Notes: generated by a model not told the origin, from the sequence alone. Counted from the first letter of the stretch, positions 23,206-42,511 are shown. The stretch: 46,450 bases of DNA from Candidatus Woesearchaeota archaeon (GCA_964601675.1 CAZROF010000003.1:1-46450); one strand, 5' to 3'. Translations and numbers: made by a program.

Positions 23206-23287
23206 ATGCTTTTTCTTTTTAGAAAAAAGAAATTCTCTGGAAGTAGAAAAAATTACCTTCCAAAAATTCTTTTTGATTTAATTTCAT
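23206..23287 (-). repeat. MKLN leader element, copy A (uORF 23287-23219, 22 aa)
   Basis: ATGAAATTAAATCAA...TTTTCTACTTCCAGAGAATTTCTTTTTTCTAAAAA; similar to copies at 29723 and 42430. Confidence 0.85.
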
Positions 23288-23289
23288 TT

Positions 23290-23436
23290 TTATGGACCTT
23301 TATGTTCGCATTTTACGCATTTATATTCATTTGAGAGACTTCTGCATTTGTCGCAACGTAGTATTTCGTTATTACATTTTGGACATGGGAATTTTACAAT
23401 TTTTGTTGTTTCTTTTCCGCAGCTTGTACATTTCAT
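23290..23436 (-). CDS. Zinc-ribbon protein, DUF1610/HVO_2753-like
   Basis: Four CxxC (CTSC, CPKC, CDKC, CVKC) ending in GP; typical neighbour of ef1b. Confidence 0.88.
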   Translation of the reverse strand: MKCTSCGKETTKIVKFPCPKCNNEILRCDKCRSLSNEYKCVKCEHKGP

Positions 23437-23603
23437 AGTTAGATGTCTTGAAAATGGTTTATAAAACTTACGTTGCAAGTTTTATAATTAATATTTATTG
23501 GTTTATCAGTAGGTATTCTTGGGTAGAGTGTAAGTTTTTCTAGTTTTTTTGATGTAGACTTAATCTCAATAATACTTAAATAGTGAGTTGGTTTTTTTGA
23601 TGT

Positions 23604-24554
23604 ATGAAAAATTATGAGTTATTAATTGATCGTATTGCTAGGTCTGCTGGTCTCGATCGCGGTGATGTTGAAAGTAAGGTTGAGTCCAAGAAAGCTAAAT
23701 TGTCTGGGTTAATTTCTAAAGAGGGCGCTGCTCAGATTATTGCTGCGGAGTTAGGAATTAGTTTTGAAGATGAAGATTTGAAGATTTCTGAGCTGATGGG
23801 CGGATTAAGAAAGGTTAATGTTATTGGGAAGGTTATGAATCTTTTTCCTATTCATGAATTTGAGAAGAATGATAGGAAAGGGAAGGTTATGAATTTTATT
23901 TTGGCTGATGATAGTGGAAGCACTCGTGTGGTTTTATGGGATGTTAATCATATTGAAATGTTTGAGAATGATAGTATTAAAGTTGGAGATGTTGTTGAAA
24001 TTAAGAATGGGTCTACTCGGGATAATGAGGTTCATCTTTCTAGTTTTGGTGAGTTGAAAAAGAGTGAGATTGTTATGGATGAGGTTAAGGATGCTCCAGT
24101 TGGTGGGGTTGAAGTTAGTTTAAGTGATGTTCGACAGGGAATGAGTGTGAAGAATAGGGGTGTTGTTGTGCAGGTTTTTCAGCCTAGGTTTTATTCTGTT
24201 TGTCCTACTTGTAATAAGAAGGGAGTGTTGGGAGATGATGGAATTTTTAAGTGTGCTGAACATGGGATTGTGGAGAAGAAGGATCGTGCTATTTTGAATT
24301 TTGTTTTAGATGATGGTACTGATAGTATGAGGGTTGTTATGTTTAGTGATCAGATTAATACCTTAATTCCAGAAGAAGATTTGAAAGATGAAGAAAAGGC
24401 TACTGCTTTTAGGGATGATTTTTTAGGGACGGAGATTTATTTAAGTGGACGAGTGAATAGGAATAAACTATTTAATAATTTGGAGATTATTGTTAGTAGT
24501 ATTGAAAAGATTGACGTGGATAAGTTAATTGAAGAATTAGATAAGAAAAGCTAA
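23604..24554 (+). CDS. rpa: Replication protein A (OB folds plus Zn finger)
   Basis: LADDSGSTRVVLWD and LDDGTDSMRVV OB motifs; CPTC...CAEHG. Confidence 0.88.
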   Translation: MKNYELLIDRIARSAGLDRGDVESKVESKKAKLSGLISKEGAAQIIAAELGISFEDEDLKISELMGGLRKVNVIGKVMNLFPIHEFEKNDRKGKVMNFILADDSGSTRVVLWDVNHIEMFENDSIKVGDVVEIKNGSTRDNEVHLSSFGELKKSEIVMDEVKDAPVGGVEVSLSDVRQGMSVKNRGVVVQVFQPRFYSVCPTCNKKGVLGDDGIFKCAEHGIVEKKDRAILNFVLDDGTDSMRVVMFSDQINTLIPEEDLKDEEKATAFRDDFLGTEIYLSGRVNRNKLFNNLEIIVSSIEKIDVDKLIEELDKKS

Positions 24555-24847
24555 ATATTTATATAATCTTTATTCTAGGTGGTATTGTGAAGTTTGTGGT
24601 AAGGGGATATATTTATACTATAATTGGTTTGCTTGTGAGCTAAATATGATTAACTCTGTAATTCTTTGAGAATAGTGATTAAAAAATATCATTGTAGAAA
24701 ATGTAAATAGTAATAGAATTATTATGGTGGTTATCTTAATTCTTTTTCCCATTTGTTATTTGAGGAATGGGCTGTTTTCAAAGATTTTTGTGTTTCCGAC
24801 GATAATTTTTTTATAATTATCTTTATAACTCGAGTTTTATTTTATTT

Positions 24848-25303
24848 TTGATGTTATTCAGGACGCACATTGTGTTTGGATTTTTGGTATGGCTGATTTT
24901 AATATTTTTTGTTAAGGCACCTTTTTTTATTCTTCTATTTATTTTAATTGGGAGTATTTTTTTAGATATTGATTCAAGCAAGAGTAAAATAGGAAATAAG
25001 TTTTGGTTTCTATCTTGGTTTTTTAGACATCGGGGTTTTTTGCATAGTTTGGTTGGTTGTTTATTTTTGAGTTTAATTATTGGTATTTTAAATTTGTGGG
25101 CTGGTTTCGGATTTTTTTTAGGAGGTATTTCTCATTTATTTTTAGATTGTTTAACTAGGGGTGGAGTTCGTTTGTTTTGGCCGTTTTCTTGGAAGATTAG
25201 GGGATTTGTCAGAAGTGGGTCTTGGATTGAAGACATTTTATTCGTTATTGGGTTGTTTCTTATTATCGCAGTTGTTTTTGAAAAATGGTTTTGGATGATA
25301 TAA
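24848..25303 (+). CDS. Membrane metal-dependent hydrolase, YdjM/DUF457-like
   Basis: RTH, LDID, HRGFLHS, SHLFLD, G.RLFWP. Confidence 0.85.
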   Translation: MMLFRTHIVFGFLVWLILIFFVKAPFFILLFILIGSIFLDIDSSKSKIGNKFWFLSWFFRHRGFLHSLVGCLFLSLIIGILNLWAGFGFFLGGISHLFLDCLTRGGVRLFWPFSWKIRGFVRSGSWIEDILFVIGLFLIIAVVFEKWFWMI

Positions 25304-25335
25304 ATTCTTATAAAGGAGGACTAGCATTTTGATAT

Positions 25336-26337
25336 ATGGTTGATGAGGATAAGAAAAAAGTTAAGAAGGTTTCTAAGAAAAAAGATGATTCCCCAAAGTT
25401 AATTGATCTTCCTGGAGTTGGTCCTGGAGCTGTAGCAAAATTAGAAGCTGCTGGAATTTATGAATTAATGGGACTTGCTGTTTTGACTCCGGCTCAGTTA
25501 AGTGAGACTGCTGGCATGAGTGAGGCTGTTGCTCGTAAGGCTATTCAGGCTTCTCGTAAAATGATGGATATGGGTTTTATGGATGGGCTGGCTCATGAAG
25601 AAAAAAGGAAGGAATTGTTTCATATTACTACTGGATCTAAAAATGTAGATAATCTTCTGGGAGGAAAAGGTATTCAGACTAAGTCAATAACTGAGGCTTT
25701 TGGGGCTTTTGGCTCTGGTAAGACTCAATTGGCTTTGTCTTTAGCTGTTGGTGTTCAGTTGCCTATTGAGCAGGGTGGTGCGAATGGGAAATGTGTTTAT
25801 ATCGATACTGAGGGGACTTTTAGGCCAGAGAGAGTTAGACAATTTGCTGAGGGCATTGATGCCAACGCAGATAAGGTTTTGAAGAATATTTTGGTTGCTC
25901 GGGCCTTTAATAGTGATCATCAAATGTTATTGTTAGATAGAGTGGTGGATTTAATTAATGAGGGTGAGCCGATTCGTTTGATGATTATTGATTCTTTAAC
26001 GGCGCATTTTAGGGCAGAGTTTTCTGGTAGGGGACAATTGGCGGATAGACAGCAGAGATTGAATCGTTATTTACATAATTTAATGAAGGTTGCTGAACAA
26101 AGCAACATTGCAGTTTATGTTACTAATCAGGTTATGTCAGATCCTGCGCAATTGTTTGGAGATCCTACAAAAGCAATTGGTGGGAATATTGTTGGACATG
26201 CCTGTACTTATCGTATGTATTTGCGAAGAGGAAAAAAGGATTCCAGGGTTTGTAAGTTAATTGATAGCCCTGATTTGCCCGATAATGAGACGGTGTTTAT
26301 GATTGAGACGGGCGGATTGCGTGATATAGATCTTTAA
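25336..26337 (+). CDS. radA: DNA repair and recombination protein RadA
   Basis: LPGVGP HhH, GAFGSGKTQ, YIDTEGTFRPER, IIDSLTAHFR. Confidence 0.97.
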   Translation: MVDEDKKKVKKVSKKKDDSPKLIDLPGVGPGAVAKLEAAGIYELMGLAVLTPAQLSETAGMSEAVARKAIQASRKMMDMGFMDGLAHEEKRKELFHITTGSKNVDNLLGGKGIQTKSITEAFGAFGSGKTQLALSLAVGVQLPIEQGGANGKCVYIDTEGTFRPERVRQFAEGIDANADKVLKNILVARAFNSDHQMLLLDRVVDLINEGEPIRLMIIDSLTAHFRAEFSGRGQLADRQQRLNRYLHNLMKVAEQSNIAVYVTNQVMSDPAQLFGDPTKAIGGNIVGHACTYRMYLRRGKKDSRVCKLIDSPDLPDNETVFMIETGGLRDIDL

Positions 26338-26439
26338 TTTTAATTCTTAGCGGTTTGTGCGGCGTTGGAAGAACGCTTATGTGCGGGTGCACACTTGCGT
26401 GACTTTCCGCCTTGTCTAAACCTGCTAAGAATTAAAATT
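26336..26439. repeat. Bulged inverted-repeat element, copy 1 (after radA)
   Basis: 16-bp perfect IR AATTTTAATTCTTAGC/GCTAAGAATTAAAATT plus GGTTT/AAACC with one unpaired T. Confidence 0.85.
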
Positions 26440-26684
26440 GTTGGTGGTGGGGGTTGGGTGGTGCTTTGTGGCTGGGGGTGCTGTTATGCTCTTTTGGGTT
26501 TTAGTAGGGTTTGGTTAGTGATGCAATTTTTGGTTTTTGGTGGGTAGTTAGATTTTTAGGGTCTCAGGATTCTGGCTAAATATGAATTTTCCCCTGCAAT
26601 TTTTTTTATTAAATCTAACTTTATGATTGATTAATAATAGAAAACAATATAAATTCTATTAAATATTTTTAATTATAATATAAA

Positions 26685-27599
26685 ATGTTTAATCTAAAAA
26701 AATATATATTTAATAAGAAGGGAGTGGCTTCTGCTGTTATAGCAACTGCTTTATTATTCATAGCTGCAATTTTTATAATAATTGGTTTTGGTGTTTGGAT
26801 TTCTTCTTCTTATTCTGGCACAACTCAAAGAACTGCTCAAAATATAGTTTGTCCGACAAATTATTTATTTGTTTCAGGAAATCCTAGTTTAAGTATCGTG
26901 GATTTTTGTGTTATGAAATATGAGGCAAAAAATGTTGGTGGAGTAGCCACATCCCAAGCTACATTAAGTCCGTGGGCTAGTATTAATCAAACTGATGCAA
27001 GAATTGTTTGTTCCAAGTTAGGTGCAGGATATCATTTAATAACTGATCCTGAATGGATGACTATTGCTCGTGAAATTGAACAAGTCCCAAGTAATTGGAA
27101 TTCAAATGTTGTTGGAAGTGATTGGATTTATTCGGGTCATAATGATGGTGTTCCTAGTAATGCTTTAAACGCATCAATAAATGATAATGATGGCTATTAT
27201 GGAACTGGTAATACTGCATCAAGTAATCAAAGAAGAACTTTGACTTTATCCAATGGTGGAGTTATATGGGATTTCTCCGGCAATGTTGAAGAGTGGGATA
27301 ATAATACATTATTGGGTGCAGATGGTAGTTTGGGTGGTCAGTCCAATGTTTTTCATGAATGGACTTCAATTAGTGGTTATAATTATTTCAAATTATCAAA
27401 TTTGTTGTATAATTCCACTCAAGGTGTTGGTAAGGTTTATACTTACGATAGTGCTATTTGGTTTGTTAAAAATCATGCTTTTTTACGCGGGGGTTTTTGG
27501 GCTAATGGGGATATTGCTGGTGTCTTGGCTTTGTTTTTGGGGCATCCTCCATCGTTTTCGGCTTTAGATATTGGTTTTCGCTGTTCCTATATGCAATAA
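26685..27599 (+). CDS. Class III signal peptide + FGE-sulfatase/C-type-lectin-fold protein (DGR-target-like)
   Basis: NKKG/VASAVI; CPTNY, FCVMKYEA, LITDPEW, DFSGNVEEW, LRGGFW...IGFRC. Confidence 0.88.
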   Translation: MFNLKKYIFNKKGVASAVIATALLFIAAIFIIIGFGVWISSSYSGTTQRTAQNIVCPTNYLFVSGNPSLSIVDFCVMKYEAKNVGGVATSQATLSPWASINQTDARIVCSKLGAGYHLITDPEWMTIAREIEQVPSNWNSNVVGSDWIYSGHNDGVPSNALNASINDNDGYYGTGNTASSNQRRTLTLSNGGVIWDFSGNVEEWDNNTLLGADGSLGGQSNVFHEWTSISGYNYFKLSNLLYNSTQGVGKVYTYDSAIWFVKNHAFLRGGFWANGDIAGVLALFLGHPPSFSALDIGFRCSYMQ

Positions 27600-27778
27600 A
27601 CTTTAATGTGGATTGGTTGGGTGGTGCAACTTTTGGTTTTGGGGGTTTTTGTTGGTATTTTTATGAGGAGTTGTTTTAGAATTGAGGTGCGGGTTATGAA
27701 TGGAGATTATTATCTTATGATAATATATATTTTAATTTATATACATAAAATATAAATGATGATTTATTTCTTGTATAG

Positions 27779-28111
27779 ATGGAGATAGCGACATATACAG
27801 AAAAATATAACTTTGGAGAGGTTGGCGTTGGCTATATTAATGGAATATTCTCTAACAATAGTGATACCGAATTTTCTGTTAATTTTAAATATGGAAAAAA
27901 TAGGGATGATGAGTTTGTTCTGAATGTGGTTAATGGTAGTGATAATATAGATGTTGCTCGTGCGGGATTAGAGGGTTTTGCTAAGGGGCTTATGCTTTCT
28001 TCTAACAGGATGTATGTTTCTTTGAATGAAAATAATTGGCTTGAATATTTTCTCGAGAGTCCTCTTTTTCCTCGGCCTAGTCAGGAAGAGTTGAGGGATA
28101 GGGCTGTATAG
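27779..28111 (+). CDS. Hypothetical protein
   Basis: 110-aa ORF with TATAAA upstream. Confidence 0.6.
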   Translation: MEIATYTEKYNFGEVGVGYINGIFSNNSDTEFSVNFKYGKNRDDEFVLNVVNGSDNIDVARAGLEGFAKGLMLSSNRMYVSLNENNWLEYFLESPLFPRPSQEELRDRAV

Positions 28112-28202
28112 TGATTTGTTTTCTGTAAAATTTTATGAGTATAGGTTTTTAGGGTTGTTTTTATTTGAGTAGCTTTATTAAGGTTTGATGGTTGGACTTT
28201 TT

Positions 28203-28817
28203 ATGGGGTCGAATAAAACTTCCGATGAATTTAATTTTTTAGAGGCTGCTTTTGTTAAGCGAACGCAATTATTTAGAGATTGCACGAATTTCGTCGTCGG
28301 GAAAGGCAACCCTAGGGCGGATATTTTGTTTGTGGGAGAGGCTCCTGGTAAAAACGAGGACGAACAGGGGTTCCCGTTTGTTGGTGCGGCGGGAAAGAAT
28401 TTGGATAAGTTGCTTGAAAAAGTTGGGTTGAATTTGGATGATGTTTATATCGCCAACATATTGAAATGTAGGCCTCCCGAGAATAGGGATCCTTTGCCTG
28501 AGGAAATTAAGATACATACTCCGTGGTTATTGAAGCAAATTAAAGAGATGAAACCTAAGGTTGTTTGCTCCTTGGGTAATTATGCAACAAAGTTTTTTTT
28601 ATCTTCGGGGAAAGTAGATTTGATGAAAGGACAGCCTGGAATTACGCAGGTCCATGGCTCTGTTAAAGAGATTGAGATTGATGGAGTGAGTTTAAAATTA
28701 ATTCCTCTATTCCATCCAGCTGCAATTATCTATAATAGGACTAAATTAACACCCTTATGGGAAGCAGATATGGAGAAGGTTAAAAATGAGGTTAATTTTT
28801 TAAAAATTACAAGTTAG
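28203..28817 (+). CDS. udg: Uracil-DNA glycosylase, family 4
   Basis: GEAPG, PFVGAAG, NILKCRPPENR, FHPAA. Confidence 0.93.
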   Translation: MGSNKTSDEFNFLEAAFVKRTQLFRDCTNFVVGKGNPRADILFVGEAPGKNEDEQGFPFVGAAGKNLDKLLEKVGLNLDDVYIANILKCRPPENRDPLPEEIKIHTPWLLKQIKEMKPKVVCSLGNYATKFFLSSGKVDLMKGQPGITQVHGSVKEIEIDGVSLKLIPLFHPAAIIYNRTKLTPLWEADMEKVKNEVNFLKITS

Positions 28818-28851
28818 ATTAGGTGTCCCGGTTCTATTTTCAATAATCTAA

Positions 28852-28998
28852 TTATCTTCGTTTAAATGGGGCAGACCTTGGAGGAGCGTTTTTGATTTTT
28901 TGGAAGATGTAGCTTACTGATTTGGTTTTTTTAGAACACTTAATACATGTGTCTTTGAGTGTATAAATATTGCATTGGGAGCATTTTTTTAATTCCAT
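28852..28998 (-). CDS. nop10: Nop10-like zinc-ribbon protein
   Basis: KCSQCNIYTLKDTCIKC; canonical position after aIF2alpha; C-terminus divergent. Confidence 0.8.
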   Translation of the reverse strand: MELKKCSQCNIYTLKDTCIKCSKKTKSVSYIFQKIKNAPPRSAPFKRR

Positions 28999-29017
28999 GA
29001 GTTGTTTTGATTTAATT

Positions 29018-29722
29018 TCATTTGTCTTCGGTCGCAAAGAATTCGCAATTATTTTCTTTTGCCTTTCTTTCTAAGTCCTCTAATATATCATTCATTTCCT
29101 TTTTACCTGTCTTAAAATCTTCTACTGTTAGTTTTAGGAAAAATTTTCCTGCAGAGATGTAAGTCACTTTTATGTTATCATTTTTTAAATCGAAAATTTT
29201 TTTTATTCTTGTCAACCCATCATTTTCTAGACATTTTATTTTTATATTTTGCTTGAGTTGCTCATTTTTCCTTTTTTTATTTATTATTTTTTCTATTGTT
29301 TCTTGATTTTCTTTTGGAATATATTTTTGTATTAACTCTGGATTTGTTCTTGCTGATATTACAAATTCGTTTAAATTTGCATAGTCTTTTAATATTACTT
29401 CTGTGATTTTATGTTCTTTTTCTTTTAGAATCTGTTTAAATGCTACATTTATTGCTTGGGCATGTTTGAATTTTTGCATTACCTCTTTCTTTTCTTTTGA
29501 GTTTACTCTTCGAAGACTTAGATGCACATTGTCTCCTTCTATTTTTAGAATTTTACATACAATTTGCTTATTTGGCACAACATATTGACGCATTAATTTT
29601 ATTCTTCCTGCCGCAATTTCTGATGATATAATAGTTCCTTCTTGGCTATTTGGCATTTCTACGAATATGATTGTGTTTGTTATTTTCTTTACTTTACAAA
29701 GTATTAAATCACCTTCTTTCAT
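29018..29722 (-). CDS. eif2a: Translation initiation factor 2 alpha subunit
   Basis: N-terminal S1 domain (EGDLILCKV, ISSEIAAGRI, HLSLRRV); between S27e and Nop10. Confidence 0.88.
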   Translation of the reverse strand: MKEGDLILCKVKKITNTIIFVEMPNSQEGTIISSEIAAGRIKLMRQYVVPNKQIVCKILKIEGDNVHLSLRRVNSKEKKEVMQKFKHAQAINVAFKQILKEKEHKITEVILKDYANLNEFVISARTNPELIQKYIPKENQETIEKIINKKRKNEQLKQNIKIKCLENDGLTRIKKIFDLKNDNIKVTYISAGKFFLKLTVEDFKTGKKEMNDILEDLERKAKENNCEFFATEDK

Positions 29723-29802
29723 TGGTCCCCTTTTTTTAGAAAAAGAAATTTCTTAGAATTAGAAAATTTCTTTTTCAATTCTTTGCATTGATTTAATTTC
29801 AT
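29723..29802 (-). repeat. MKLN leader element, copy B (uORF 29802-29719, 27 aa, ATGA-coupled to eif2a)
   Basis: ATGAAATTAAATCAA...TTTTCTAATTCTAAGAAATTTCTTTTTCTAAAA. Confidence 0.85.
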
Positions 29803-29835
29803 TATTTTATTAAGATAGTTGTTTATTTAAATCTT

Positions 29836-30006
29836 TTATAAGACTTCTTCTACTTTCGCTCGTATTTTGGCCTTTCCAGATGAAGGTATAGCTAGGACTG
29901 CGTTGCATCCGAGACATCTAACTTTTGTGGAGGCTTTCCCGAAAATTGTCTGTGATTCCTTGCATTTAGAGCATTTCACTTTTATGAATTTTCCTTTTTG
30001 TTCCAT
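29836..30006 (-). CDS. rps27e: Ribosomal protein S27e, 56 aa (not in ORF track)
   Basis: MEQKGKFIKVKCSKCKESQTIFGKASTKVRCLGCNAVLAIPSSGKAKIRAKVEEVL*. Confidence 0.95.
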   Translation of the reverse strand: MEQKGKFIKVKCSKCKESQTIFGKASTKVRCLGCNAVLAIPSSGKAKIRAKVEEVL

Positions 30007-30131
30007 CTAATTTGATGAGGAGTTTGGTTTTTAAACTTTGGTATGGTGCCAGAATAGGGTTTGTTGCCTATGGGTATATATATATACTTTAGCATAATAT
30101 TATTTAAAAGTAGGTTCTAGTTTTTGGGGGT

Positions 30132-31715
30132 ATGCAAAGAAAATATATCGTAGTGACTGGTGGCGTTCTTTTTGGTTTAGGGAAGGGAATTGCCATGGCT
30201 AGTATAGGAAATATTTTATCGTCTTCTTATAAAGTTGTTCCAGTTAAATGTGATGGCTATTTGAATGTTGATCCTGGTACTATGAATCCCTTGGAACATG
30301 GAGAAGTTTTTGTTTTAGATGATGGGGGAGAGGTTGATATGGATTTTGGACATTATGAAAGATTTTTGGATGTGATTTGTAATGGTGACTGGAATTTGAC
30401 GATGGGGAGAGTTTTTGATGAGATTAGAAAGAAAGAAAGAAAGGGAGATTATTTGGGAAAAACTGTACAAATGATTCCGCATGTTTCCAATTTTATTAAA
30501 GATCATTTTTTGAAAGTTGGAAAGGAATCAGGCGCGGATGTTTTGTTGATTGAAGTTGGTGGAACTATTGGGGACATGGAAAATGAGTTATACCTTGACG
30601 CGATTAGGAGTTTGGCTAGAAAGGTTGGAAGAGAAAATATTTTATTTATACATCTAACTTATGTACCGATTCCACACGGGGTTGATGAACAAAAATCTAA
30701 ACCAACACAGCAAAGTGTGAATTTACTTAGGCAAAAGGGGATTAATCCTGATATTGTGATTGCTCGTTGTAGTGAGATGTTGACTAAAGGGACTCGAAGT
30801 AAGATTGCTAAATTTGGGAATTTGGATTTTGATAAAGTTCTTACCGGAGTTGATGTTGATGATGTATATAAAATTCCGCTTAGTTTTGAGGAGCAGGGAT
30901 TGTCTCAATTGATTGCTCGTCAATTGAATATGCCTATTAATGTTGATTTGAAAAAATGGAAAAGTTTAATTGATAAAAAAGAAGCTGCAACAAAAGAGGT
31001 TATCGTTGGTATTGCTGGAAAATATACATCATTAGAGGACTCTTATGCTAGTATTGTTGAAGCGCTAAAACACTGTGAGGCAAATTTGGGAGTTAAGATT
31101 AGGGTGAAGTGGATTGATACAGATGAAGGAAATCTTGATGTTTTAGATGAAGTTCATGGGGTTATTGTGCCTGGTGGATTTGGTTCTCGTGGAACTGAGG
31201 GGAAAATTGATGTTGTGAGATATTGCCGAAAAAATGGAGTCCCTTTTTTGGGAATTTGTTACGGGCTACAGATGGCCGTGATTGAATTTGCTCGAGATAT
31301 TTGCGGGCTAAAGGATGCTAATAGTACTGAAGTTGATAAGGGCTGCGAACACCCTGTTGTTGATATCATGGAAAGCCAAAAGAATATTGAGAATAAAGGT
31401 GGAACTATGAGACTTGGTGCTTATACTGCATATATCAAGGAGGGAACGAAGGTTTTTAATTTATATGGGGCTGATGAAGTTAGTGAGAGACACCGACACC
31501 GATTTGAAGTTAATCCTAAATATCATGAGACGCTGGAAAGAAAAGGTTTAATTTTGAGTGGAATTTCTCCGGATGGGACTTTAGTTGAGTTTATTGAGTT
31601 AAAGAATCATCCTTATTTTGTCGCTACACAGGCTCATCCTGAATTAAAGAGTTCTTTATTAAAACCGGCGCCATTATTCAAGGGATTTGTTTCGGCTTGT
31701 ATTAATAATTCTTAG
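30132..31715 (+). CDS. pyrG: CTP synthase
   Basis: DGYLNVDPGTM, KSKPTQ, VPGGFG, GICYG, ERHRHR, QAHPE. Confidence 0.97.
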   Translation: MQRKYIVVTGGVLFGLGKGIAMASIGNILSSSYKVVPVKCDGYLNVDPGTMNPLEHGEVFVLDDGGEVDMDFGHYERFLDVICNGDWNLTMGRVFDEIRKKERKGDYLGKTVQMIPHVSNFIKDHFLKVGKESGADVLLIEVGGTIGDMENELYLDAIRSLARKVGRENILFIHLTYVPIPHGVDEQKSKPTQQSVNLLRQKGINPDIVIARCSEMLTKGTRSKIAKFGNLDFDKVLTGVDVDDVYKIPLSFEEQGLSQLIARQLNMPINVDLKKWKSLIDKKEAATKEVIVGIAGKYTSLEDSYASIVEALKHCEANLGVKIRVKWIDTDEGNLDVLDEVHGVIVPGGFGSRGTEGKIDVVRYCRKNGVPFLGICYGLQMAVIEFARDICGLKDANSTEVDKGCEHPVVDIMESQKNIENKGGTMRLGAYTAYIKEGTKVFNLYGADEVSERHRHRFEVNPKYHETLERKGLILSGISPDGTLVEFIELKNHPYFVATQAHPELKSSLLKPAPLFKGFVSACINNS

Positions 31716-31770: not shown

Positions 31771-31856
31771 GTTTGTGGGAATATTTTGTAGGTATGGTTT
31801 TAATTGTTGTAATTAAATGTATAAATGTTTTTATATATGTGATTGCTTTTGACTGT

Positions 31857-32327: not shown

Positions 32328-32329
32328 GA

Positions 32330-34156: not shown

Positions 34157-34419
34157 TGTAATTGATGTAAATTTGGGTTTTTAAAGTTAGTGGGTGAGGG
34201 GGCTGTGGATGATAATTAGTATTAATTGAGTACACTTTTAACTATATGATTCTGGTAAAATCGTTATAAAATTGACTTATAATCTATGACTAAAAAATAA
34301 GCAGGTCAAAATAAGTAGGGAATATTTTCTTATAAAGTTTGTGTCTTTTCGGTTTCAGGGTAGAGTTATTTTCATATATATTTCAGAAATTAATTAAAGG
34401 AGGGTTGGCTTGATTTTTT

Positions 34420-35313: not shown

Positions 35314-35688
35314 CTAACTATCCAAAAATATAAAAACTTTTTTAAAAATTCTCATATTGCAGCAATAAAAATTATAAAATCAAAGAATGGAGTCAGCAGA
35401 AAAGTTTCTGATTCATATTTTGTGTTAAATTTACTTAGTGCGGATGATAGCGATAAGGTTAGTTTAGTAATAAGTAATGCTGATAATTATGATGAAACAA
35501 CAAAAACAACAAGTGACAGGGTTTATTGCATTTATTTCCTGAAACTTTCTAGTTAGGAATTCTTGTTGGAGATACTGGCTCTTAAAAATCAGGGTTTTTA
35601 CCAGTAGGTGATTTGGTGATCTAAGGTTTAGGGTGGCATGATTTCTGAATTTACAATTCTTTATATAATGATATGCATGGTTTTTGTT

Positions 35689-36141
35689 ATGGTAAATAAT
35701 GTTTTGATTAAGGCTTCTGGGGATGTTGTTGAGAAAGAAGGTATTTTGGATTTTATTAGAGACAAGGCACGAGATAATTATGTTGTTGTTATTTGTGGTG
35801 CTGGTACGAAAATTGGAGAGGTGCTTAGGAGGAAGGGATATGACACAAAGTTTGATTTTCATGGTCGTATAACTGAAACTTTTGAAGAGAGGGTGATTGT
35901 CCGGAATGTTTTAGAGCGGGAACAAAAAAAGTTGCAAGATGGACTTGTTGGTACAGGGGCAAATGTCGTGATACCTATAATTGAGATGGCTTCTATTTTA
36001 TGTCATATAAATGGGGATATGTATGTTAAAGCTGGGTATTTGGGATTTGACGAGATTTATGTTTTTACTTTGAATGACAGGGTTGAAGGGAAGAAGAAGA
36101 TTTTTGAGGGTTTTGATAAGGTTGAAATTGTCGGGGTTTAA
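35689..36141 (+). CDS. Short amino-acid-kinase-like protein
   Basis: VLIKASG, VVICGAGT and INGD resemble AAK motifs (KxGG, HGGG, NAD); only 150 aa. Confidence 0.55.
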   Translation: MVNNVLIKASGDVVEKEGILDFIRDKARDNYVVVICGAGTKIGEVLRRKGYDTKFDFHGRITETFEERVIVRNVLEREQKKLQDGLVGTGANVVIPIIEMASILCHINGDMYVKAGYLGFDEIYVFTLNDRVEGKKKIFEGFDKVEIVGV

Positions 36142-36226
36142 GTGCGATTTTTATTTCATAAAAAATTGTGCATTCTTTGATTTTGTATTTTTTATGAAGT
36201 TTTTGAACTAGAATTTGAATAAAGAA

Positions 36227-36299
36227 TAGCCCCGCGCGGATTCGAACCGCGGTCGCTGGGATCAAAACCCAGAATCCTTGACCACTAGACTACGGGACT
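36227..36299 (-). tRNA. tRNA-Gln (UUG)
   Basis: AGTCCCG acceptor stem (A1-U72), CTGGG-TTTTGAT-CCCAG anticodon arm, GGTTCGAATCC T-arm; no intron, CCA not encoded. Confidence 0.97.
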
Positions 36300-36391
36300 A
36301 GTGAATTTATGAGATGGGAGGGATTTTTAAGTTTTAGTGTTTGGTTTTAGTGTGACTTAATTTTAAATAGATAGATATTGTAATTTCTTTT

Positions 36392-37264
36392 ATGGTATCT
36401 AGCGAGTTTTTTGTGGAGTTTAGTGTGTTATTTTTGTATATTTTTTCTTTTTATATTGCTTATAAAATTAAGAAGCTGGATTTTCTTATATATGCTACAA
36501 TTTTTTCGTTTTTTTTTGAAATTTTAAATGTGTTGAGTTTTTTACAGAATAGTTTTGGATATATTTATTCTAGTGGGTTTTTGATGTATGTATTTAATGT
36601 TCCACTTTTTATCATTTTGGCTTGGGGTATTTTATTTTTGGGTGCTTATTTGGTTTCTTTGAGGCTTCGTATGTCTAAGATTTCTCGTGTTTTATTCATT
36701 CCCGTTTTCATCACTTTAGTAGATTTTGTGATTGAGGGTGTTAGTGTAAATTTGGGATATTGGGTTTGGTTGGGGGCGGAAGGTGGCAGGGAACTTTTTT
36801 CGTCGATTGTTGCTTCTAATTTTGTTGGGTGGCTAGGGGTTAGTCTTGGGTTTATTTTGTGTTATGAGTATTTAGAAAGGAAATGGCTGAGTATGTTTTT
36901 GGGTTATTTGGTGTTTATGTTTTTAGAGTTTGCTTTTTTTAGTTTAAATTGGGTTTTGGGTTTTGTTGGGAACGAGGAATATATGTCATTGGGTGTTATT
37001 TTATTTTGTTTTATAGCTTCATGGTTTTATTTTTATCATAAGAATAAGATATTGAATAGAAATAAGAAAGATTTTAAGGTTGATTTTGGGCATGCAAAAT
37101 ATATTGTTTTTATGAGGGGTTTTTTTTATCTTTTTGCTTTATTTTATTTTTTTTGGGATAAATATTATTCAGATTTAGTTTATACTATTGTATTAGTTTT
37201 TGTGGTTTTTATGGAAATGTATTTTTTTCTGAGATTCAATGGGTTTATTAAGAAGAAGGTGTAG
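36392..37264 (+). CDS. DUF422/CruF-like membrane protein
   Basis: VPLFIILAW, DFVIE...LGYWVW, SNFVGW. Confidence 0.65.
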   Translation: MVSSEFFVEFSVLFLYIFSFYIAYKIKKLDFLIYATIFSFFFEILNVLSFLQNSFGYIYSSGFLMYVFNVPLFIILAWGILFLGAYLVSLRLRMSKISRVLFIPVFITLVDFVIEGVSVNLGYWVWLGAEGGRELFSSIVASNFVGWLGVSLGFILCYEYLERKWLSMFLGYLVFMFLEFAFFSLNWVLGFVGNEEYMSLGVILFCFIASWFYFYHKNKILNRNKKDFKVDFGHAKYIVFMRGFFYLFALFYFFWDKYYSDLVYTIVLVFVVFMEMYFFLRFNGFIKKKV

Positions 37265-37371
37265 TTAGTGTTGACTTAGTTTTAAAGGGCATTTTGTTTT
37301 GGTCTATTATAGAATTTAAAAATATTAAAATTCCCTATAAATTTATAAATTAGATTGGGTCTTTATTTTAT

Positions 37372-38289
37372 ATGGTTATAAAGAGGCAGATTTTTTTTAG
37401 TGTGATTGTAGGTTTGTTTTTAATTAGTTGTGTTTCTGCTGTATTTTCTACTAGTACTTATAATTTAAATGAGGGAGATAATTCGAATGCTCATTTTCTA
37501 GTCCATACTTTGAAATATGGTCCTTTTCCTGTAAGCCCGGGAAATTGGTTTGATGTTTGGGTTAAGGTGCAAAATGTTGGACAAGAGGATGCTAAAAATG
37601 CCACATTTAGGTTTATTCCTAGCTATCCTTTTTCTTCAAATGATAAAGTTGTTAGGTCTTTTGGATTGGTTAGCGGAACGATATCTGCTTATGCAGAAAG
37701 ACAACCTGGAGAAAACCAGAGTAATTCAAATCAAGTTTTATTAAAATTCCATGTTTTTGTAAATAATAACGCTATTGAGGGAGTGTATAATTTGAAACTG
37801 GAGAGTTCTGTTAAGGGGGATAGTGGAACTAAGTTTATGTATGATCTTCCAATTTCTGTGGAGAAATCTGAGGTTGATTTTGACACTACTTTGCAGGATT
37901 CGAGGAATATTGGAACATCTTTTACAATTACTAATACAGGGACTAAATCAGCTAGTAGTATAATTGTGAAAATAAATGAGAGTGAGTGGAATTTGTTTGG
38001 AGATAAGTCATTTAATGTTGGGAAGTTGAATAATGGGGAAACAACGAGGTTTGTGGTTCAGGGGGTTCCATCGTCTTCAAATATTAAATTAAATATTAGT
38101 TATACAGATATTTCTGGAGTAAGAAGAGCTTTGATTAATGACATTCCTGTTTCTAGGAAGGGGCATGTGTTGATAAAGTCTCCAGAGGATCCTTCTTATA
38201 AAAAATGGCTGTTTGGATTGGCTGGAATTTTTATTGGTATTGGTATTTTAGGGATATCAAGAAAGATTCATAATAAGAAGAGGACGTAA
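37372..38289 (+). CDS. COG1361-type S-layer-domain protein
   Basis: Signal peptide, PFPVSPG...VKVQNVG Ig-like repeats, NTG motif, C-terminal TM anchor. Confidence 0.75.
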   Translation: MVIKRQIFFSVIVGLFLISCVSAVFSTSTYNLNEGDNSNAHFLVHTLKYGPFPVSPGNWFDVWVKVQNVGQEDAKNATFRFIPSYPFSSNDKVVRSFGLVSGTISAYAERQPGENQSNSNQVLLKFHVFVNNNAIEGVYNLKLESSVKGDSGTKFMYDLPISVEKSEVDFDTTLQDSRNIGTSFTITNTGTKSASSIIVKINESEWNLFGDKSFNVGKLNNGETTRFVVQGVPSSSNIKLNISYTDISGVRRALINDIPVSRKGHVLIKSPEDPSYKKWLFGLAGIFIGIGILGISRKIHNKKRT

Positions 38290-38304
38290 GTAATTTTAGA
38301 TAAT

Positions 38305-38952
38305 ATGCAGAATAATAAACAAACAAAGAGGCAGCGTATTGTTGATAAAATTTATCATGAAGTTGCAATTTCAATAATAGTAACATTGTTTTTTGCGATC
38401 CTTGTGGGCGGAATTGTTTATTATCAAGTTAATCAGGGGCGGATTTATATAGAAAATGCAGAAATAAGTGCTCCTGTGATTTTATTAAAACCTCAAAATT
38501 TTGGGGTGTTGGATCATGTCTTTGTTAGAGCAGGAGATAGTGTTTCTATAAATGATGTTGTGGCAAAGGTTGATGGAGAGTCGATAAAAGCTGGAACAGA
38601 AGGAATAATTAGTTTTGCTAATAATGTCCCAGGTCAGTATGTTTCTCCTCAGGATACAATCGTTAAGATGTTTAATCCTGCAGAGTTAAGAATTATTGGT
38701 CGTGTTGAAGAAGATAAGGGTTTGGTTGAGATTAAGCCAGGTCAAAGAGTTGTTTTTACCGTTGATGCATTTGATTCAAAAGAATATGCGGGTATTGTTG
38801 AATCAGTAAGCCCAATTGCAAGACAGTCAGACATTGTATTTAGTATTTCTGATAAAAGGGAAGAAAAGCAATTTGATGTTAATGTGAAATTTATAGCTGG
38901 CTATCCTGAACTTAAAAATGGTATGTCTGCAAAAATGTGGATATATAAGTAA
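38305..38952 (+). CDS. Short HlyD/EmrA-like adaptor protein lacking the alpha-hairpin
   Basis: N-terminal TM, lipoyl halves VFVRAGDSV and IKAGTEGII nearly adjacent, IKPGQRV, LKNGMSA. Confidence 0.82.
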   Translation: MQNNKQTKRQRIVDKIYHEVAISIIVTLFFAILVGGIVYYQVNQGRIYIENAEISAPVILLKPQNFGVLDHVFVRAGDSVSINDVVAKVDGESIKAGTEGIISFANNVPGQYVSPQDTIVKMFNPAELRIIGRVEEDKGLVEIKPGQRVVFTVDAFDSKEYAGIVESVSPIARQSDIVFSISDKREEKQFDVNVKFIAGYPELKNGMSAKMWIYK

Positions 38953-38954
38953 AG

Positions 38955-40421
38955 ATGGACAGTGAGGAATCAAGGGCTGGGCTATGGGTACTTGTTACGG
39001 TTATTATTGGGACGTTACTTGGAAGTTTGGATAGAACTGTTGTTAATCTTGCGCTTCCAGATATGATGAATCATTTTAGTATTTCGGTTTCTAGTGCTGG
39101 TTGGATTGCTACGGCCTATATTCTTGCTAATGCAATATTTGTTCCGGTCTGGGGAAAGCTAGGGGATATTATTGGTAGAAAGAAAGTTTATATTTCAGGA
39201 TTTATTATATTTATTGGAAGCTCCTTGTTTGCGGGACTTGCTTGGAATTTTAGTTCATTGATATTTTTTAGGGTTGTTCAGGCTTTGGCTGTTTCTGCGG
39301 ATTATCCTACTGCAATGGCAATTCTCGCTACTACGTTTAGTGGAAGGTCTAGAAAGAAAGCTATGGGAATTTGGTCTGCAAGTATGGCTTTAGGGGCAGT
39401 TCTCGGCCCATTAATTGGTGGACCATTGATAGATAATTTTGGATGGCGTTCTATATTTCTTGTTAATGTACCTTTGGGGATTATAGGAATTTTAATGGCA
39501 TATAAATTTATAGAAGAATCAAATATTAAAAAGCAAAAAGTTAATTTCGATATTTTTGGGGCTATGGTATTAGCTGTTGCTCTTTTTGCGATTGTGTTGG
39601 TATTGGATAAGGGTCTTTCTTGGGGGTGGATTTCTTTGAAAAGTATTTTGTCTTATTTTGTAGCAATTTGTTTTCTTATTTTATTTTATTTTATTGAGAA
39701 AGCTCATAAAGATCCTATCGTTAATTTAAATCTTTTTAAGAATAGGACTTTTGTGATGGTGATTATTAATACTTTTGCGATATTTATGGCATTAATGGGG
39801 AGTCTTTTTTTGATTCCTTTATTCGCACAAAATTTTTTAGGATATTCTTCTACACAAGCGGGTTATTTGTTTTTACCTATGGCGATTGTTCTTATATTTG
39901 CAGCTCCTTTGGGTGCTAAGTTGGGGAAAAGATTATCTTCTGGTAGGATTATAGCTATAGGAACTTTTATCGCTGCGGGTGGGGTGTTTTTATTTTCATT
40001 TCTTGATCTTCGTTCTACGGCACTTAATTTAATTATTCCTTTTTCAATTATGGCTTTTGGTTTAGGTTTAGGAATGTCTCATCGACCGAGTTTGATAGTA
40101 TCTTTAGCTCCTAAAGATGAGATAGGGTCCGCTTCATCATTGTTTGTTTTGTTTAGAAATATGGCTGGAGCGTTTGGGGTTGCATTTTTTGCTACGATTT
40201 TGTCAAGTAGTATGAAAGATAATGTTTTGAATTTGTCTAGGTATACAATTGTTAATTCTAAAGATCCCGCAGTTTATCAAAAAGTAATGTCATTAATAAT
40301 TCTTAAGGCGCAGGTTCTTTCTTATGCTGAAGTTTTTATTGTTGCATCGGTTTTGATTTTTATTGGGGGCATAGTCGCGTTATTTATTGATAACAAAAGA
40401 GTTAGAGATAAATCTTCATGA
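38955..40421 (+). CDS. DHA2 (EmrB/QacA) MFS efflux transporter
   Basis: LDRTVVNLALP, WGKLGDIIGRKK, LGPLIGG, WRSIFLVNVPLG; about 14 TM. Confidence 0.93.
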   Translation: MDSEESRAGLWVLVTVIIGTLLGSLDRTVVNLALPDMMNHFSISVSSAGWIATAYILANAIFVPVWGKLGDIIGRKKVYISGFIIFIGSSLFAGLAWNFSSLIFFRVVQALAVSADYPTAMAILATTFSGRSRKKAMGIWSASMALGAVLGPLIGGPLIDNFGWRSIFLVNVPLGIIGILMAYKFIEESNIKKQKVNFDIFGAMVLAVALFAIVLVLDKGLSWGWISLKSILSYFVAICFLILFYFIEKAHKDPIVNLNLFKNRTFVMVIINTFAIFMALMGSLFLIPLFAQNFLGYSSTQAGYLFLPMAIVLIFAAPLGAKLGKRLSSGRIIAIGTFIAAGGVFLFSFLDLRSTALNLIIPFSIMAFGLGLGMSHRPSLIVSLAPKDEIGSASSLFVLFRNMAGAFGVAFFATILSSSMKDNVLNLSRYTIVNSKDPAVYQKVMSLIILKAQVLSYAEVFIVASVLIFIGGIVALFIDNKRVRDKSS

Positions 40422-40423
40422 TG

Positions 40424-41032
40424 TTAGTGTTTTTTGTATCTTCCACGTTTTTCTACTATAATTAATCGTTCTAGGATTTTTTTTGAATCTTCCCAGTTGT
40501 AGCCTTTTTCAAAATTTTTGGATAGGTTTTCATATATAAGGAAGTGTTTTGCCTTTAGGGCTTGTTTTATTAGGTGGATATCTACTGCTTTGTCTTCTAT
40601 TTTTGTTGAGATATAAGATAGTCCAAAATCAATTAGGAATATTTTTGAATTTGATAAGATGATGTTGGATGTTGTTAGGTCTGCATGGATTATGTTGTTT
40701 TTGTGAAGTTTTGCCACTTGTCTTCCTATTTTTTGCATTGTGGAAAATTGTTTGGATTCTGGGTAGGAGTTTAGGGTTTGGGAGAGGCGGTCGCCTTTGA
40801 TGTATTCCATTGAGAGGTTGAATTTTTCTGTGTGTAGAAGTTTTGGGACGTTAATTCTTGCTTTTGCTGCTTTAGTTAGGATTTTTGCTTCGGCCCTGGT
40901 TCGGCGGGTTCTTATTTGTTTGTCTAGCTGGGGGTGGCGGTAAGATTTTGGGAGGCGGTTTTTGTGGATGGTGTTATCTTTGGTTAGGTAGATTTTTGCT
41001 TCGGCGCCTTGTTGGATTAAATTTTGTTTCAT
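40424..41032 (-). CDS. bud32: KEOPS complex kinase Bud32
   Basis: QGAEA, PKSYRHPQLD, HADLTTSN, IDFGL, EDKAVD, RGRY. Confidence 0.93.
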   Translation of the reverse strand: MKQNLIQQGAEAKIYLTKDNTIHKNRLPKSYRHPQLDKQIRTRRTRAEAKILTKAAKARINVPKLLHTEKFNLSMEYIKGDRLSQTLNSYPESKQFSTMQKIGRQVAKLHKNNIIHADLTTSNIILSNSKIFLIDFGLSYISTKIEDKAVDIHLIKQALKAKHFLIYENLSKNFEKGYNWEDSKKILERLIIVEKRGRYKKH

Positions 41033-41034
41033 GA

Positions 41035-42429
41035 TTAAATTCTCATCTTCCCACTAAACTTCTTAGCCATCTTCTGCATCATCTTGGGGTCAATGTTTCC
41101 CTCAGCCATACCTGATTGCATTCCCATCATTTCTTTTAGCATCTTATATTGTTTTAGAAGTTCTCGGATTTCTGTGGTGGTAGTCCCAGAACCTTTTGCA
41201 ATTCTTGCTATTCTACTTGTTTGTTTTTCTAAGATTTCGGGGTTTTCAATTTCTTCTTCTGTCATTGAGGAGATTGCACATTTCCAGTTTTTCATTTTGA
41301 CTTCTTGTTTTGCTAGTGCTTCTTTTGGGACTTTTGCGGCGGACATCCCTGGTATCATTCCTATTAGTTTGTCCATGGAGCCCATTTTGTTCATTTGCTC
41401 TAGTTGTGAGTATAAATCTAGGAGTGTGAATTTTCCTTTTTTTAGTCTGTCTTCGATTCTTTTAGTTTGAGATTCGTCTGTTGCTGATTTTACATGTTCT
41501 AGTAGAGCTTGTAGGTCTCCCATTCCGAGTAGTCTTTGGATGAACGATTCTGGGTTGAAGGTTTCTATTTCGTGGAGTTGTTCTCCGACACCGATGAAGT
41601 AGACTGGGGAGGAAGTTTCTGCGCAAGCTGTTAGGGCACCACCTGCTTTTGAGGTTCCATCCATCCTTGTTATGATTACGCCGTCAATTGAGAGTGCTTT
41701 TTGGAATTCCAAGCTTTGAGTTTTTGCGGTTTGTCCTACGTCAGCAGGCATTACGAGGATTCTGTAGTCTGGTTTTAGGGTTTTGTTTAGGGTTTTAATT
41801 TCTTTGGTTAGTTCTTCGTTTAGTCCGTCTCGTCCGGCTGTGTCAATTAAAACTAGGTCATATTTTTCTAGCTCTTTTTTGTGTTTCTTTATTATTTCTA
41901 GAGATCTTTTTGTATGGTTAAGTTTTTTGTTTTTTTCTTTGTCTTCTGGGGATTCTATGAATGAATGAAGTTTTGCTTTGTCGGCCATTTGTTGGAGCTG
42001 TTCCATTGCGGCTGGTCTTTGTGTATCTAGTCCTAGGAGCGCTACTTTTTTCCCTCTTTTTGCGTAATAGAATCCTAATTTTGCAATTGTTGTGGTTTTA
42101 CCTGCTCCGTAAAGACCTAGGAACATAATGCTTGCCTGTTTTGGCAATTTTAGTTCTTTGGCTTCTCCACCTAGAATTAGTGAGATTTCATCGTGGATTA
42201 GGGTTATTAGTTGCTCTTTTTTGTCTACGGATTGGATTGTTTCATCGTAGGCGATTTTTTTGATTTTTTGTGTTAGGGCGAATACTAGTTCTATATTGAT
42301 GTCTGCTTCAATTAGGGATTTTTGGATGTCTTTGATGACTGCATCTATTAGTTTCTTATCTAGGAAGATTGCGTTGCTGATTTTTTTTATTCCGGATTTT
42401 AGGGTGCTGCCTAGTTTTTCTAGTACCAT
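41035..42429 (-). CDS. srp54: Signal recognition particle protein SRP54
   Basis: GLYGAGKTT, DTAGR, TRMDG, Met-rich M domain with RIAKGSG; start MVLEKLG. Confidence 0.96.
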   Translation of the reverse strand: MVLEKLGSTLKSGIKKISNAIFLDKKLIDAVIKDIQKSLIEADINIELVFALTQKIKKIAYDETIQSVDKKEQLITLIHDEISLILGGEAKELKLPKQASIMFLGLYGAGKTTTIAKLGFYYAKRGKKVALLGLDTQRPAAMEQLQQMADKAKLHSFIESPEDKEKNKKLNHTKRSLEIIKKHKKELEKYDLVLIDTAGRDGLNEELTKEIKTLNKTLKPDYRILVMPADVGQTAKTQSLEFQKALSIDGVIITRMDGTSKAGGALTACAETSSPVYFIGVGEQLHEIETFNPESFIQRLLGMGDLQALLEHVKSATDESQTKRIEDRLKKGKFTLLDLYSQLEQMNKMGSMDKLIGMIPGMSAAKVPKEALAKQEVKMKNWKCAISSMTEEEIENPEILEKQTSRIARIAKGSGTTTTEIRELLKQYKMLKEMMGMQSGMAEGNIDPKMMQKMAKKFSGKMRI

Positions 42430-42511
42430 TGATTTCTTTCTTTTAGAAAAAGAAATTTCTCGCAAGTAGAAAACTTATATTGAGAAATACTGTTTCTTTG
42501 TTTAATTTCAT
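42430..42511 (-). repeat. MKLN leader element, copy C (uORF 42511-42443, 22 aa)
   Basis: ATGAAATTAAACAAA...TTTTCTACTTGCGAGAAATTTCTTTTTCTAAAA. Confidence 0.85.

Follow-up and report, generated by a model that had tools for sequence, protein, structure and literature searches.

What is the repeat of about 80 nt that stands directly before three genes of translation and secretion in a stretch of DNA from a Candidatus Woesearchaeota archaeon (GCA_964601675.1, CAZROF010000003.1:1-46450), and how did it come to be there? The stretch, called here the window, is 46,450 nucleotides in length, and is contig C3 of a genome (G000) of 939,765 bp in 58 contigs with 34% G+C. An initial annotation offered two explanations for the repeats: a structured leader that controls translation and secretion genes, or a selfish element directed at start codons that carries an ATG of its own. 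It proposed that a covariance model, the comparison of orthologous loci and a search for an already described family would bear on the choice. We have therefore used sequence comparison to examine the repeat in the window, in the rest of G000 and in other genomes of the same genus, all of those compared being incomplete metagenome-assembled genomes (MAGs). Judged from these sequences, the repeats are probably copies of a small non-autonomous mobile element of one DPANN genus, persisting at start codons as a portable cassette of upstream open reading frame (uORF) and re-initiation.

The three copies all lie on the minus strand, at 23206–23287 (copy A), 29723–29802 (copy B) and 42430–42511 (copy C). 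Each extends from an ATG at its head to the base before the ATG of a gene. The head ATG of copy A (23287–23285) precedes that of EF-1-beta at 23205, the head of copy B (29802–29800) precedes that of eIF2-alpha at 29722, and the head of copy C (42511–42509) precedes that of SRP54 at 42429, giving spacings of 82, 80 and 82 nt. All three copies are recognized by nhmmer and by the covariance model. All three start with ATGAAATTAAA, contain an internal TTTTCTA and end in (A)TTTCTTTTT(T)CTAAAA, with one extra T in the otherwise common 3′ end of copy A. Their mean column identity on alignment is 75%, the 5′ and 3′ blocks being near-identical, and by the nhmmer E-values given below this likeness is far beyond chance. 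The positions, shared motifs and distances given in the initial annotation are thus all confirmed, by the sequence itself and by alignment, and the identities of the three genes by Pfam.

The element is non-coding and about 80–87 bp in size. An nhmmer profile made from six copies was run on the whole genome. The six return E-values of 1e-14 to 1e-18, two more copies are found at 2.6e-12 and 5.7e-09, and after these eight the next-best match has E = 0.13. The covariance model likewise gives eight matches in the genome, with E = 2e-15 to 3e-11. The five copies that lie elsewhere in G000 each precede a gene. One of these genes encodes a VIT-like membrane protein (with a Pfam score below the cut-off), one an S4-domain protein and one an RpoP-type zinc ribbon, and two encode proteins without a Pfam family, of which one has a signal-like N-terminus.

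Outside G000 the distribution is patchy. The covariance model matches 17 of the 36 other genomes of the genus, with 1–24 copies in each, the richest being G030 (24 copies), G010 (12), G024 (9) and G026 (9); no match to the family was found in the other 19. None of 24 genomes taken from eight other families of the order was matched. An exact 19-nt core of the element is present in 28 stretches of a collection of species genomes, and all 28 are MAGs titled Pacearchaeota, Woesearchaeota, Nanoarchaeota or plain 'archaeon'. A single match of the 19-nt core in a viral contig lies within unrelated sequence, is missed by the model, and was set aside as chance. On the basis of these searches the family is confined to one Pacearchaeota-type (DPANN) genus.

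The most direct evidence on the origin of the copies comes from orthologous loci, where filled and empty sites can be compared. We examined 31 SRP54 loci, in 25 of which the start is readable. The element is present in two of these (G000 and G027); in 22 a TATA box and some 20 nt lead directly into ATGGTA, and the remaining one (G021) has an insert unrelated to the element. The G001 genome has the same SRP54 promoter sequence as G000, with the gene ATG at the place of the G000 head ATG, and the difference between the two is therefore one ATG plus 79 bp. The SRP54 proteins of G000 and G027 are 72% identical, and those of the empty-site genomes G024, G014 and G061 are 87–88% identical to that of G000. 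Since G000 and G027 are not nearest relatives, the economical reading would be that the same SRP54 codon has been struck twice independently. At eIF2-alpha four of the 29 loci read are filled (G000, G030, G065 and G063), and the site is empty in the nearer relatives G061, G024 and G014. At EF-1-beta only G000 is filled among 29 loci read. In most relatives the EF-1-beta ATG lies 0 to about 20 nt after the stop codon of an HVO_2753-like gene, and in G000 the head ATG of the element lies 2 nt after it, so that this insertion is at a start codon tightly packed behind another gene. At every filled site the first ATG of the element stands where relatives carry the gene's own ATG.

Comparison of the copies with each other also points to movement. 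A copy in G002 (L008) and one before eIF2-alpha in G065 (L134) are at non-orthologous loci of different species, and are only 1.2% apart. The host proteins diverge far more, with eIF2-alpha sequences 65–68% identical to that of G000. Copies at two separate loci of G030 are also 1.2% apart, and for 18 of 47 copies the nearest neighbor lies within the same genome. There are head-to-tail tandem copies in G030 with one common ATGG junction, and several copies have some 33 nt inserted within them, placed either in the loop of H3 (the hairpin just before the gene, described below) or between H3 and the middle block. About three quarters of the copies end exactly at a gene ATG.

Some further features of these loci were observed. 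The nested insert carries two small hairpins (GCCTC..GAGG, then ACC..GGGTG), and is seen in L020 (G001), L036:3972–4091 (G030), L041:867–968 (G010), L042:904–1009 (G026) and L137 (G063); it may represent another mobile or expansion segment, smaller still than the element. At one locus of G030 (L006, G030:C16:37613–40713) the genes for FtsZ, Spt5 and L11 are consecutive, and each has a copy of the element at its start codon, all within 3 kb. In other genomes of the genus unrelated short inserts of about 30–110 nt stand before the start codons of the same genes, namely eIF2-alpha (L119, L120, L125 and L135), EF-1-beta (L165, L169, L172, L173 and L179) and SRP54 (L058). They sit between the promoter or the previous stop codon and the start codon, and tandem 7-mers occur in two of them. 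In this genus the region of the start codon seems to serve generally as a place where inserts land.

If the element displaces the start codon, which ATG does the promoter now serve? Our own crude gene call gave 998 genes in G000, and the 843 of at least 80 codons were profiled for start signals. The profile has AA at −33/−32 and TTTAWAAA at −29 to −22, and no Shine-Dalgarno signal, and we read it as the signature of mostly leaderless mRNAs in this genome. A TATA-like box TTTAAATA at 29824–29831 (minus strand) lies at −29 to −22 from the head ATG of copy B, and relatives use this same promoter directly for eIF2-alpha. For copy C the box is ATATAAAA at 42535–42542 (minus strand), −31 to −24 from the head ATG, and is orthologous to the SRP54 promoter of G001, which there stands directly before the gene ATG. 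The initial annotation had remarked that the copy C box is placed for transcription to start at the uORF ATG. This is right, and it generalizes to other heads when they are scored with a position-weight matrix derived from G000's own genes. Copy B scores 6.1 at the head against −1.6 at the gene ATG. Over 29 copies the head ATGs have a median score of 3.4, with 13 above the random 95th percentile, and the gene ATGs inside the element have a median of −0.1, with none of the 29 above that percentile. An internal promoter within the element for the gene was rejected on this result. Copies internal to operons have a GGTGA-, GGAGG- or GAGGT-like sequence a few bases before the head start codon. It is the head and not the gene ATG that lies at promoter or ribosome-binding-site distance, and thus the former start signal of the gene would now serve the first codon of the element.

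That first codon opens a short ORF. In copies A and C it has 22 codons and stops 13 nt before the gene, and in copy B it has 27 codons and ends in an ATGA that overlaps the gene start, as translation confirms and as had been described initially. Among 36 parsed copies the head codon is ATG in 27, GTG in two, ATA in six and TTG in one, some of the ATA and TTG heads being degenerate or mis-parsed. In 13 copies the ORF has its TAA in the H3 loop and stops 13 nt before the gene; it overlaps the gene start as ATGA in nine and as TAATG in three, and ends at −12 to −18 in four. Altogether the end falls within −18 to +4 of the gene start in 29 of the 36, and in-frame fusion of the short ORF to the gene occurs in none of them. 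Copies with an ORF in the second frame mostly precede ATGA genes or have a TAATG tail, and 82-nt copies mostly precede ATGG. This hints at a pairing between copy length and gene start, in a count that includes orthologous copies more than once. The peptide itself is not conserved: the frame in which identical DNA is read changes from copy to copy, giving FFY..ISF in some and FLLARNFFF in others. Compensated variants of the first hairpin alter it as well.

We analyzed the secondary structure using 51 distinct aligned copies, three candidate helices (H1, H2 and H3) and 500 shuffles. The initial annotation had drawn a hairpin in the middle of each copy, formed by different paired bases in each; these are not conserved, and the conserved hairpins are instead one near the 5′ end, H1, and one that immediately precedes the gene, H3. 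H1 has the form CAAAAC-GNA-GTTTTG with two-sided changes in five of its six pairs, and variants CAGAGC/GCTCTG, CAATGC/GCATTG and CAAAAA/TTTTTG. H3 has the form TTTCTTTTT-TCT-AAAAAGAAA, with 99.1% of its cells paired and two-sided changes in three of nine pairs, including ten UA-to-CG cells, and it carries a run of 4–8 T. The helix H2 (AAGT/ACTT) was dropped, with no pair changed on both sides and 12 cells of one pair unpaired. An RNAalifold helix TGGAAAA/TTTTCTA was also rejected, as it is not kept across the family. In the whole structure 95.4% of cells are paired. Two-sided changes are observed in 34 cells against 6.2 in the shuffles, none of the 500 reaching 34, which supports both H1 and H3.

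In copy A, H1 lies at 23261–23275 (minus strand, as are the positions that follow) and is a compensated variant, CAAAAA-GAA-TTTTTG. Its H3 lies at 23212–23232 and has the usual sequence, with the TAA stop of the short ORF in the loop. H3 of copy C at 42437–42455 is TTTCTTTT-TCT-AAAAGAAA, corresponding to an inverted repeat (I4) of 8 nt that is 100% complementary. The H3 region of copy B at 29727–29748 is degenerate, pairing only with a shifted loop and G-U pairs, and contributes two of the six non-Watson–Crick H3 cells in the alignment, one of them a G-T wobble. Calculated folding energies are mostly unremarkable, with z between −0.3 and −1.6 in seven of eight copies and −3.7 in one, and the thermodynamic support that they would lend to the fold is weak. 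The element matches no described Rfam family. A scan of the whole window against Rfam 15 at the gathering threshold returned only a tRNA, and a scan of the three element loci with E up to 10 returned one unrelated weak match lying outside the element.

The two strands of the genome show an extreme, fixed asymmetry of composition. On its plus strand contig C3 has a GC skew of +0.35 and an AT skew of −0.19. At third codon positions the GC skew of genes is near +0.7 on the plus strand and near −0.5 on the minus strand, and its sign follows the strand of the gene on other G000 contigs too. All eight genes downstream of the element in G000 have an excess of A over T at third positions, with a skew of +0.29 to +0.80. 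This class comprises 275 of 780 genes (35%); the majority G/T-rich class, with 467 of the 780, contains none of the eight. G030 has a similar asymmetry, with contig-strand GC skews of 0.2–0.44. There, the 21 copies whose contigs had their skew measured are all on the C-rich strand, and all 11 scored target genes have a third-position AT skew (AT3) above 0.4, compared with 27 of 126 sampled ORFs above 0.25. All placeable copies are on the C/A-rich strand. The skew presumably marks the replication strands.

These observations can be assembled into a sequence of events. The element would insert exactly at a start codon, in the orientation of the gene, with an ATG at each end. The ATG that had been served by the promoter, or in operons by the old ribosome-binding site, would become the first codon of the element's short ORF, and the gene would retain the ATG at the 3′ end of the element. 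Transcription would give a leaderless mRNA with the head AUG at its 5′ end. Ribosomes would translate the ORF of about 22–29 codons, stop in the H3 loop or on the gene ATG itself (ATGA or TAATG), and re-initiate on the gene. Such an insertion would be tolerated, and in a tightly packed genome it would be at start codons that copies survive. Because all the placeable copies lie on the C/A-rich strand, movement may be strand-specific, possibly via single-stranded DNA. The second explanation in the initial annotation, a selfish element that targets start codons and comes with an ATG, agrees with the exactness of the filled and empty sites, with the patchy, genus-restricted distribution of 0–24 copies per genome and with the tandem and nested copies. 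A uORF and re-initiation route to expression of the host gene is plausible, and the family appears to be new: no paper on such a start-codon element was found in the part of the full-text literature that the search covered.

A number of results weigh against reading the repeats as mobile start-codon cassettes. The G000 copies are 12–20% distant from their nearest relatives, and so are old. In a sequencing run, X1, that is likely to be from the source sample, a contig of depth 4.3 joins position 42509 to 42404 with 22 letters between, which read as a single-ATG empty SRP54 site and count to that extent in favor of precise insertion; as about four of the 22 letters differ from the window, however, the contig comes from a relative and does not represent the same population. 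About one quarter of family matches, having other 5′ modules, are not at start codons. Terminal inverted repeats are absent, and the only inverted repeats found are internal hairpins, none joining the two ends. The ATG found at both ends of most copies may have arisen as a 3-bp duplication, or may belong to the element or to the target, and longer matches between the ends (CAATGGAA, ATGAAA) occur in single copies only. In H1 the ratio of G-T wobbles on the sense strand to A-C mismatches is 7:1 (2:3 in H3). These small numbers lean towards a constraint on RNA or the sense strand, and the pattern points to something other than simple recognition of the antisense single strand. The run of 6–7 T in H3 would be expected to lower transcription of the gene, and the model leaves this cost unexplained. 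Lastly, no transposase or other mobilizing gene is linked to the element. The Y1 (IS200/IS605-type) transposase PF01797 is present in 12 of 49 genomes of the genus, and in only three of the 17 element-positive ones; it was not found in G000, G030, G010, G024 or G026, although these MAGs are 83–89% complete and so its absence from them is not proven. When the nhmmer profile of the element was compared with four Y1 and four TnpB loci the best match had E = 1.5.

The last of these results bear equally on a specific alternative, that the repeat belongs with the palindrome-associated elements of IS200/IS605 (or REP/RAYT) type. It would be moved in trans, as single-stranded DNA, by a Y1 HUH transposase and inserted beside 5′-CAT on the lagging-strand template, and selection would keep only those insertions that are at start codons. 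Elements of the IS200/IS605 group insert into the lagging-strand template, and the subterminal hairpins, the lack of terminal inverted repeats and of a long duplication, the restriction of every placeable copy to one compositional strand, the head-to-tail tandems with a common ATG(G) junction and the very presence of Y1 genes in the genus would all fit. Yet no Y1 gene was found in G000 or the four copy-richest genomes, a TnpB zinc ribbon scores above the cut-off in only 6 of 49 genomes of the genus, none of them copy-rich, and the flanks of the resident Y1 genes have no similarity to the element. IS608-type elements have two ends that resemble each other, and H1 and H3 do not. Moreover the H1 wobbles favor the sense strand, and not the strand that is exposed as the lagging-strand template. 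Y1 and TnpB were consequently rejected as the movers, their distribution failing to track the element, and we regard this alternative as unlikely. The solo 3′ modules have other short 5′ hairpins, are placed after genes and share no common neighboring gene. No parent autonomous element was seen, in comparisons that did not extend to searching systematically for long elements flanked by head and tail.

Could the repeats instead be a conserved, non-mobile 5′ leader of structured RNA and leader peptide, uniting genes of translation, transcription and secretion in one regulon, as the first explanation of the initial annotation had it? The hairpins covary, H1 favors sense-strand wobbles and the short ORF closes near the gene start in 29 of 36 copies, as such a leader might. 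The targets, named by Pfam, also include many information-processing genes. In addition to those for EF-1-beta, eIF2-alpha and SRP54 they include translation and ribosome genes (L11, S3Ae, S27ae, L44e, Trp/Tyr-tRNA synthetase, TruD and an RNA-methyltransferase-like protein) and transcription genes (Spt5, Spt4, FttA and RpoP). Such genes predominate, in a count made without a baseline for functional enrichment, but not exclusively. The element also precedes genes for FtsZ, ScpA, two GTPases, glutamate dehydrogenase, YbjQ, a helix-turn-helix protein and a metallopeptidase, together with the VIT-like membrane protein and a secreted protein. The element is missing at 23 of 25 SRP54, 25 of 29 eIF2-alpha and 28 of 29 EF-1-beta loci, and more than half of the other genomes of the genus have none. 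Copies from different species can be 98.8% identical even at loci that are unrelated, tandem and nested copies occur, and the frame of the peptide varies. Most orthologs thus lack the element and its targets vary between genomes, leaving a conserved regulon unsupported. On these comparisons the non-mobile leader is largely refuted, and we give it little chance.

Slightly less probable still is that the repeat is a multi-copy small RNA gene or a portable terminator or attenuator, in which H3 and its T-run would end an RNA of about 65 nt starting at the head, the position at gene starts being secondary. The run of 4–8 T in H3 suits this, as do variants with the same 3′ module and another 5′ hairpin that lie just after the stops of co-oriented genes (L145 and L143), and a second repeat family of G000 (described below) that has a common 3′ module. 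However, the element extends for 16 nt past the T-run, about three quarters of the copies end exactly at a gene ATG, there is no Rfam match, and the TTTTTCTAAAA palindromes are not generally at gene ends. Nor is there a complementary target elsewhere in G000 for the conserved single-stranded core: the reverse complement of TCTACTTGCGAGAAATTTC occurs in that genome only within the copies themselves, and a target in trans was rejected. We also rejected, by eye, removal of the element from the mRNA as a bulge-helix-bulge intron or by a self-cleaving ribozyme. The head and tail are direct repeats and not complementary, a leaderless message has no upstream exon with which to pair, and no Rfam ribozyme matched.

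Among the readings that involve movement, a stronger form of the start-codon cassette deserves mention. The element might be actively targeted to start codons and not merely filtered by selection, using a replication-strand-specific mechanism without a known transposase, its RNA structure and leaderless short ORF together making a self-contained 'start-codon cassette' that restores expression of the gene it has struck. The repeated, independent strikes at one codon of SRP54 and of eIF2-alpha, the insertions at starts inside operons and the constraint on the sense strand of H1 agree with this, without being proof of it, and we hold it as a tentative possibility that is rather doubtful. If true, it would define a new class of prokaryotic mobile element by its homing to the first codon.

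How does the proposed mobile cassette compare with known systems? With MITEs (miniature transposable elements with inverted repeats) in the broad sense, such as Correia/NEMIS of Neisseria, RUP and BOX of Streptococcus, and ERIC, it shares a size class of about 80–150 bp, multiple non-coding and foldable copies, presumed co-transcription with neighbors, patchiness among close relatives, and tandem and nested copies. It differs in having no terminal inverted repeats and no TA-type duplication, in its fixed orientation to the gene, in lying exactly on the start codon instead of loosely between genes, and in keeping to one compositional strand. Compared with a classical MITE it is likewise short, non-coding, multi-copy and present or absent between relatives, but lacks the terminal inverted repeats. 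The palindrome-associated elements derived from IS200/IS605, and the REP/BIME sequences moved by Y1 (RAYT) proteins, share with it hairpins near the ends without inverted terminal repeats, insertion by a short fixed motif, an orientation presumably set by the replication strand, and tandem arrays. The present element has no Y1 gene that tracks it and ends unlike those of the Y1 insertion sequences in the genus; it has two dissimilar hairpins, and its mismatches suggest a constraint on the sense strand or RNA. Its hairpins, strand restriction, tandems and lack of inverted ends resemble single-strand (HUH) transposition, a likeness by analogy and not a claim of membership.

Other parallels concern the way in which an insertion is tolerated or placed. 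Rickettsia palindromic elements (RPE) are also selfish short palindromic DNA that persists in expressed genes in a form compatible with expression. They lie in frame inside ORFs and are translated with the host protein, whereas the element described here is at the first codon and has a short ORF of its own, closing ahead of the gene start or on it. Termination–reinitiation at uORFs and leader peptides, as in bacterial attenuators, eukaryotic uORFs and coupled genes of archaeal operons, similarly has a stop a few nucleotides from the main start; here the arrangement would be created by mobile insertion at many unrelated genes, and with a leaderless 5′-terminal AUG. Ty3 at RNA polymerase III start sites is an analogy only, for repeated independent insertion at one promoter-defined position. 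It is a eukaryotic long-terminal-repeat retrotransposon guided by transcription factors, while our element has no link to a reverse transcriptase, and some of its insertions are at operon-internal starts and not at start sites.

The genes around the three copies in the window, all on the minus strand, are as follows. EF-1-beta downstream of copy A occupies 22930–23205 (Pfam EF1_GNE, E = 7.1e-18), and the HVO_2753-like zinc-finger gene whose TAA stop lies 2 nt before the head ATG occupies 23290–23478. Downstream of copy B is eIF2-alpha at 29018–29722 (Pfam EIF_2_alpha, E = 3.6e-07, above the cut-off), and upstream of the copy B promoter is the gene for ribosomal protein S27e at 29836–30006. SRP54, downstream of copy C, occupies 41035–42429 (Pfam SRP54, SRP_SPB and SRP54_N). 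The HVO_2753-like/EF-1-beta and S27e/eIF2-alpha pairs are adjacent here and in most of the 29 loci read for each, and in both the element has been inserted between the partners. In G063 (C28:214163–217282) and G065 (C18:1911–5027) SRP54 matches in two pieces (residues 1–112 and about 100–463), 1.7–2.7 kb apart in one open frame of 1041–1061 codons, which looks like an intein-type insertion.

Two further repeats in G000 lie outside the window. The second repeat family mentioned above is of 145–170 bp, with a GC-rich segment and AATTTGCATTAAATA at its start, at C13:1461–1603, C22:14052–14192, C22:13731–13899 and C19:10039–10203. It ends in a hairpin module of T-run, TCT and A-run like that of a variant of the element, and stands beside the 3′ ends of genes and not at start codons. 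A perfect palindrome, CTTC-T-run-CT-A-run-GAAG, has four copies (C4:7966, C2:49557, C40:45 and C40:5183), each preceded by C-T6-GC(C). As three of the four are near contig ends, it is suggested to be an assembly-breaking repeat. No Rfam family was found beside the three palindrome sites that were scanned.

The usual description of small mobile elements has them inserted loosely in the spaces between genes. The family described here is found repeatedly on the first codon, in archaea that have almost no spare DNA and mostly leaderless mRNAs. For annotation, the consequence is that gene callers will misplace promoters and starts, or call spurious ORFs of 22–29 codons, at element loci. If the cassette reading is correct, selfish DNA would persist in an extremely compact genome by supplying a start codon and a short ORF from which the ribosome passes on to the gene. 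The copies would then constitute a natural set of leaderless uORF and main-ORF constructs for the study of re-initiation in archaea, and would reveal a strand-specific insertion process in DPANN archaea.

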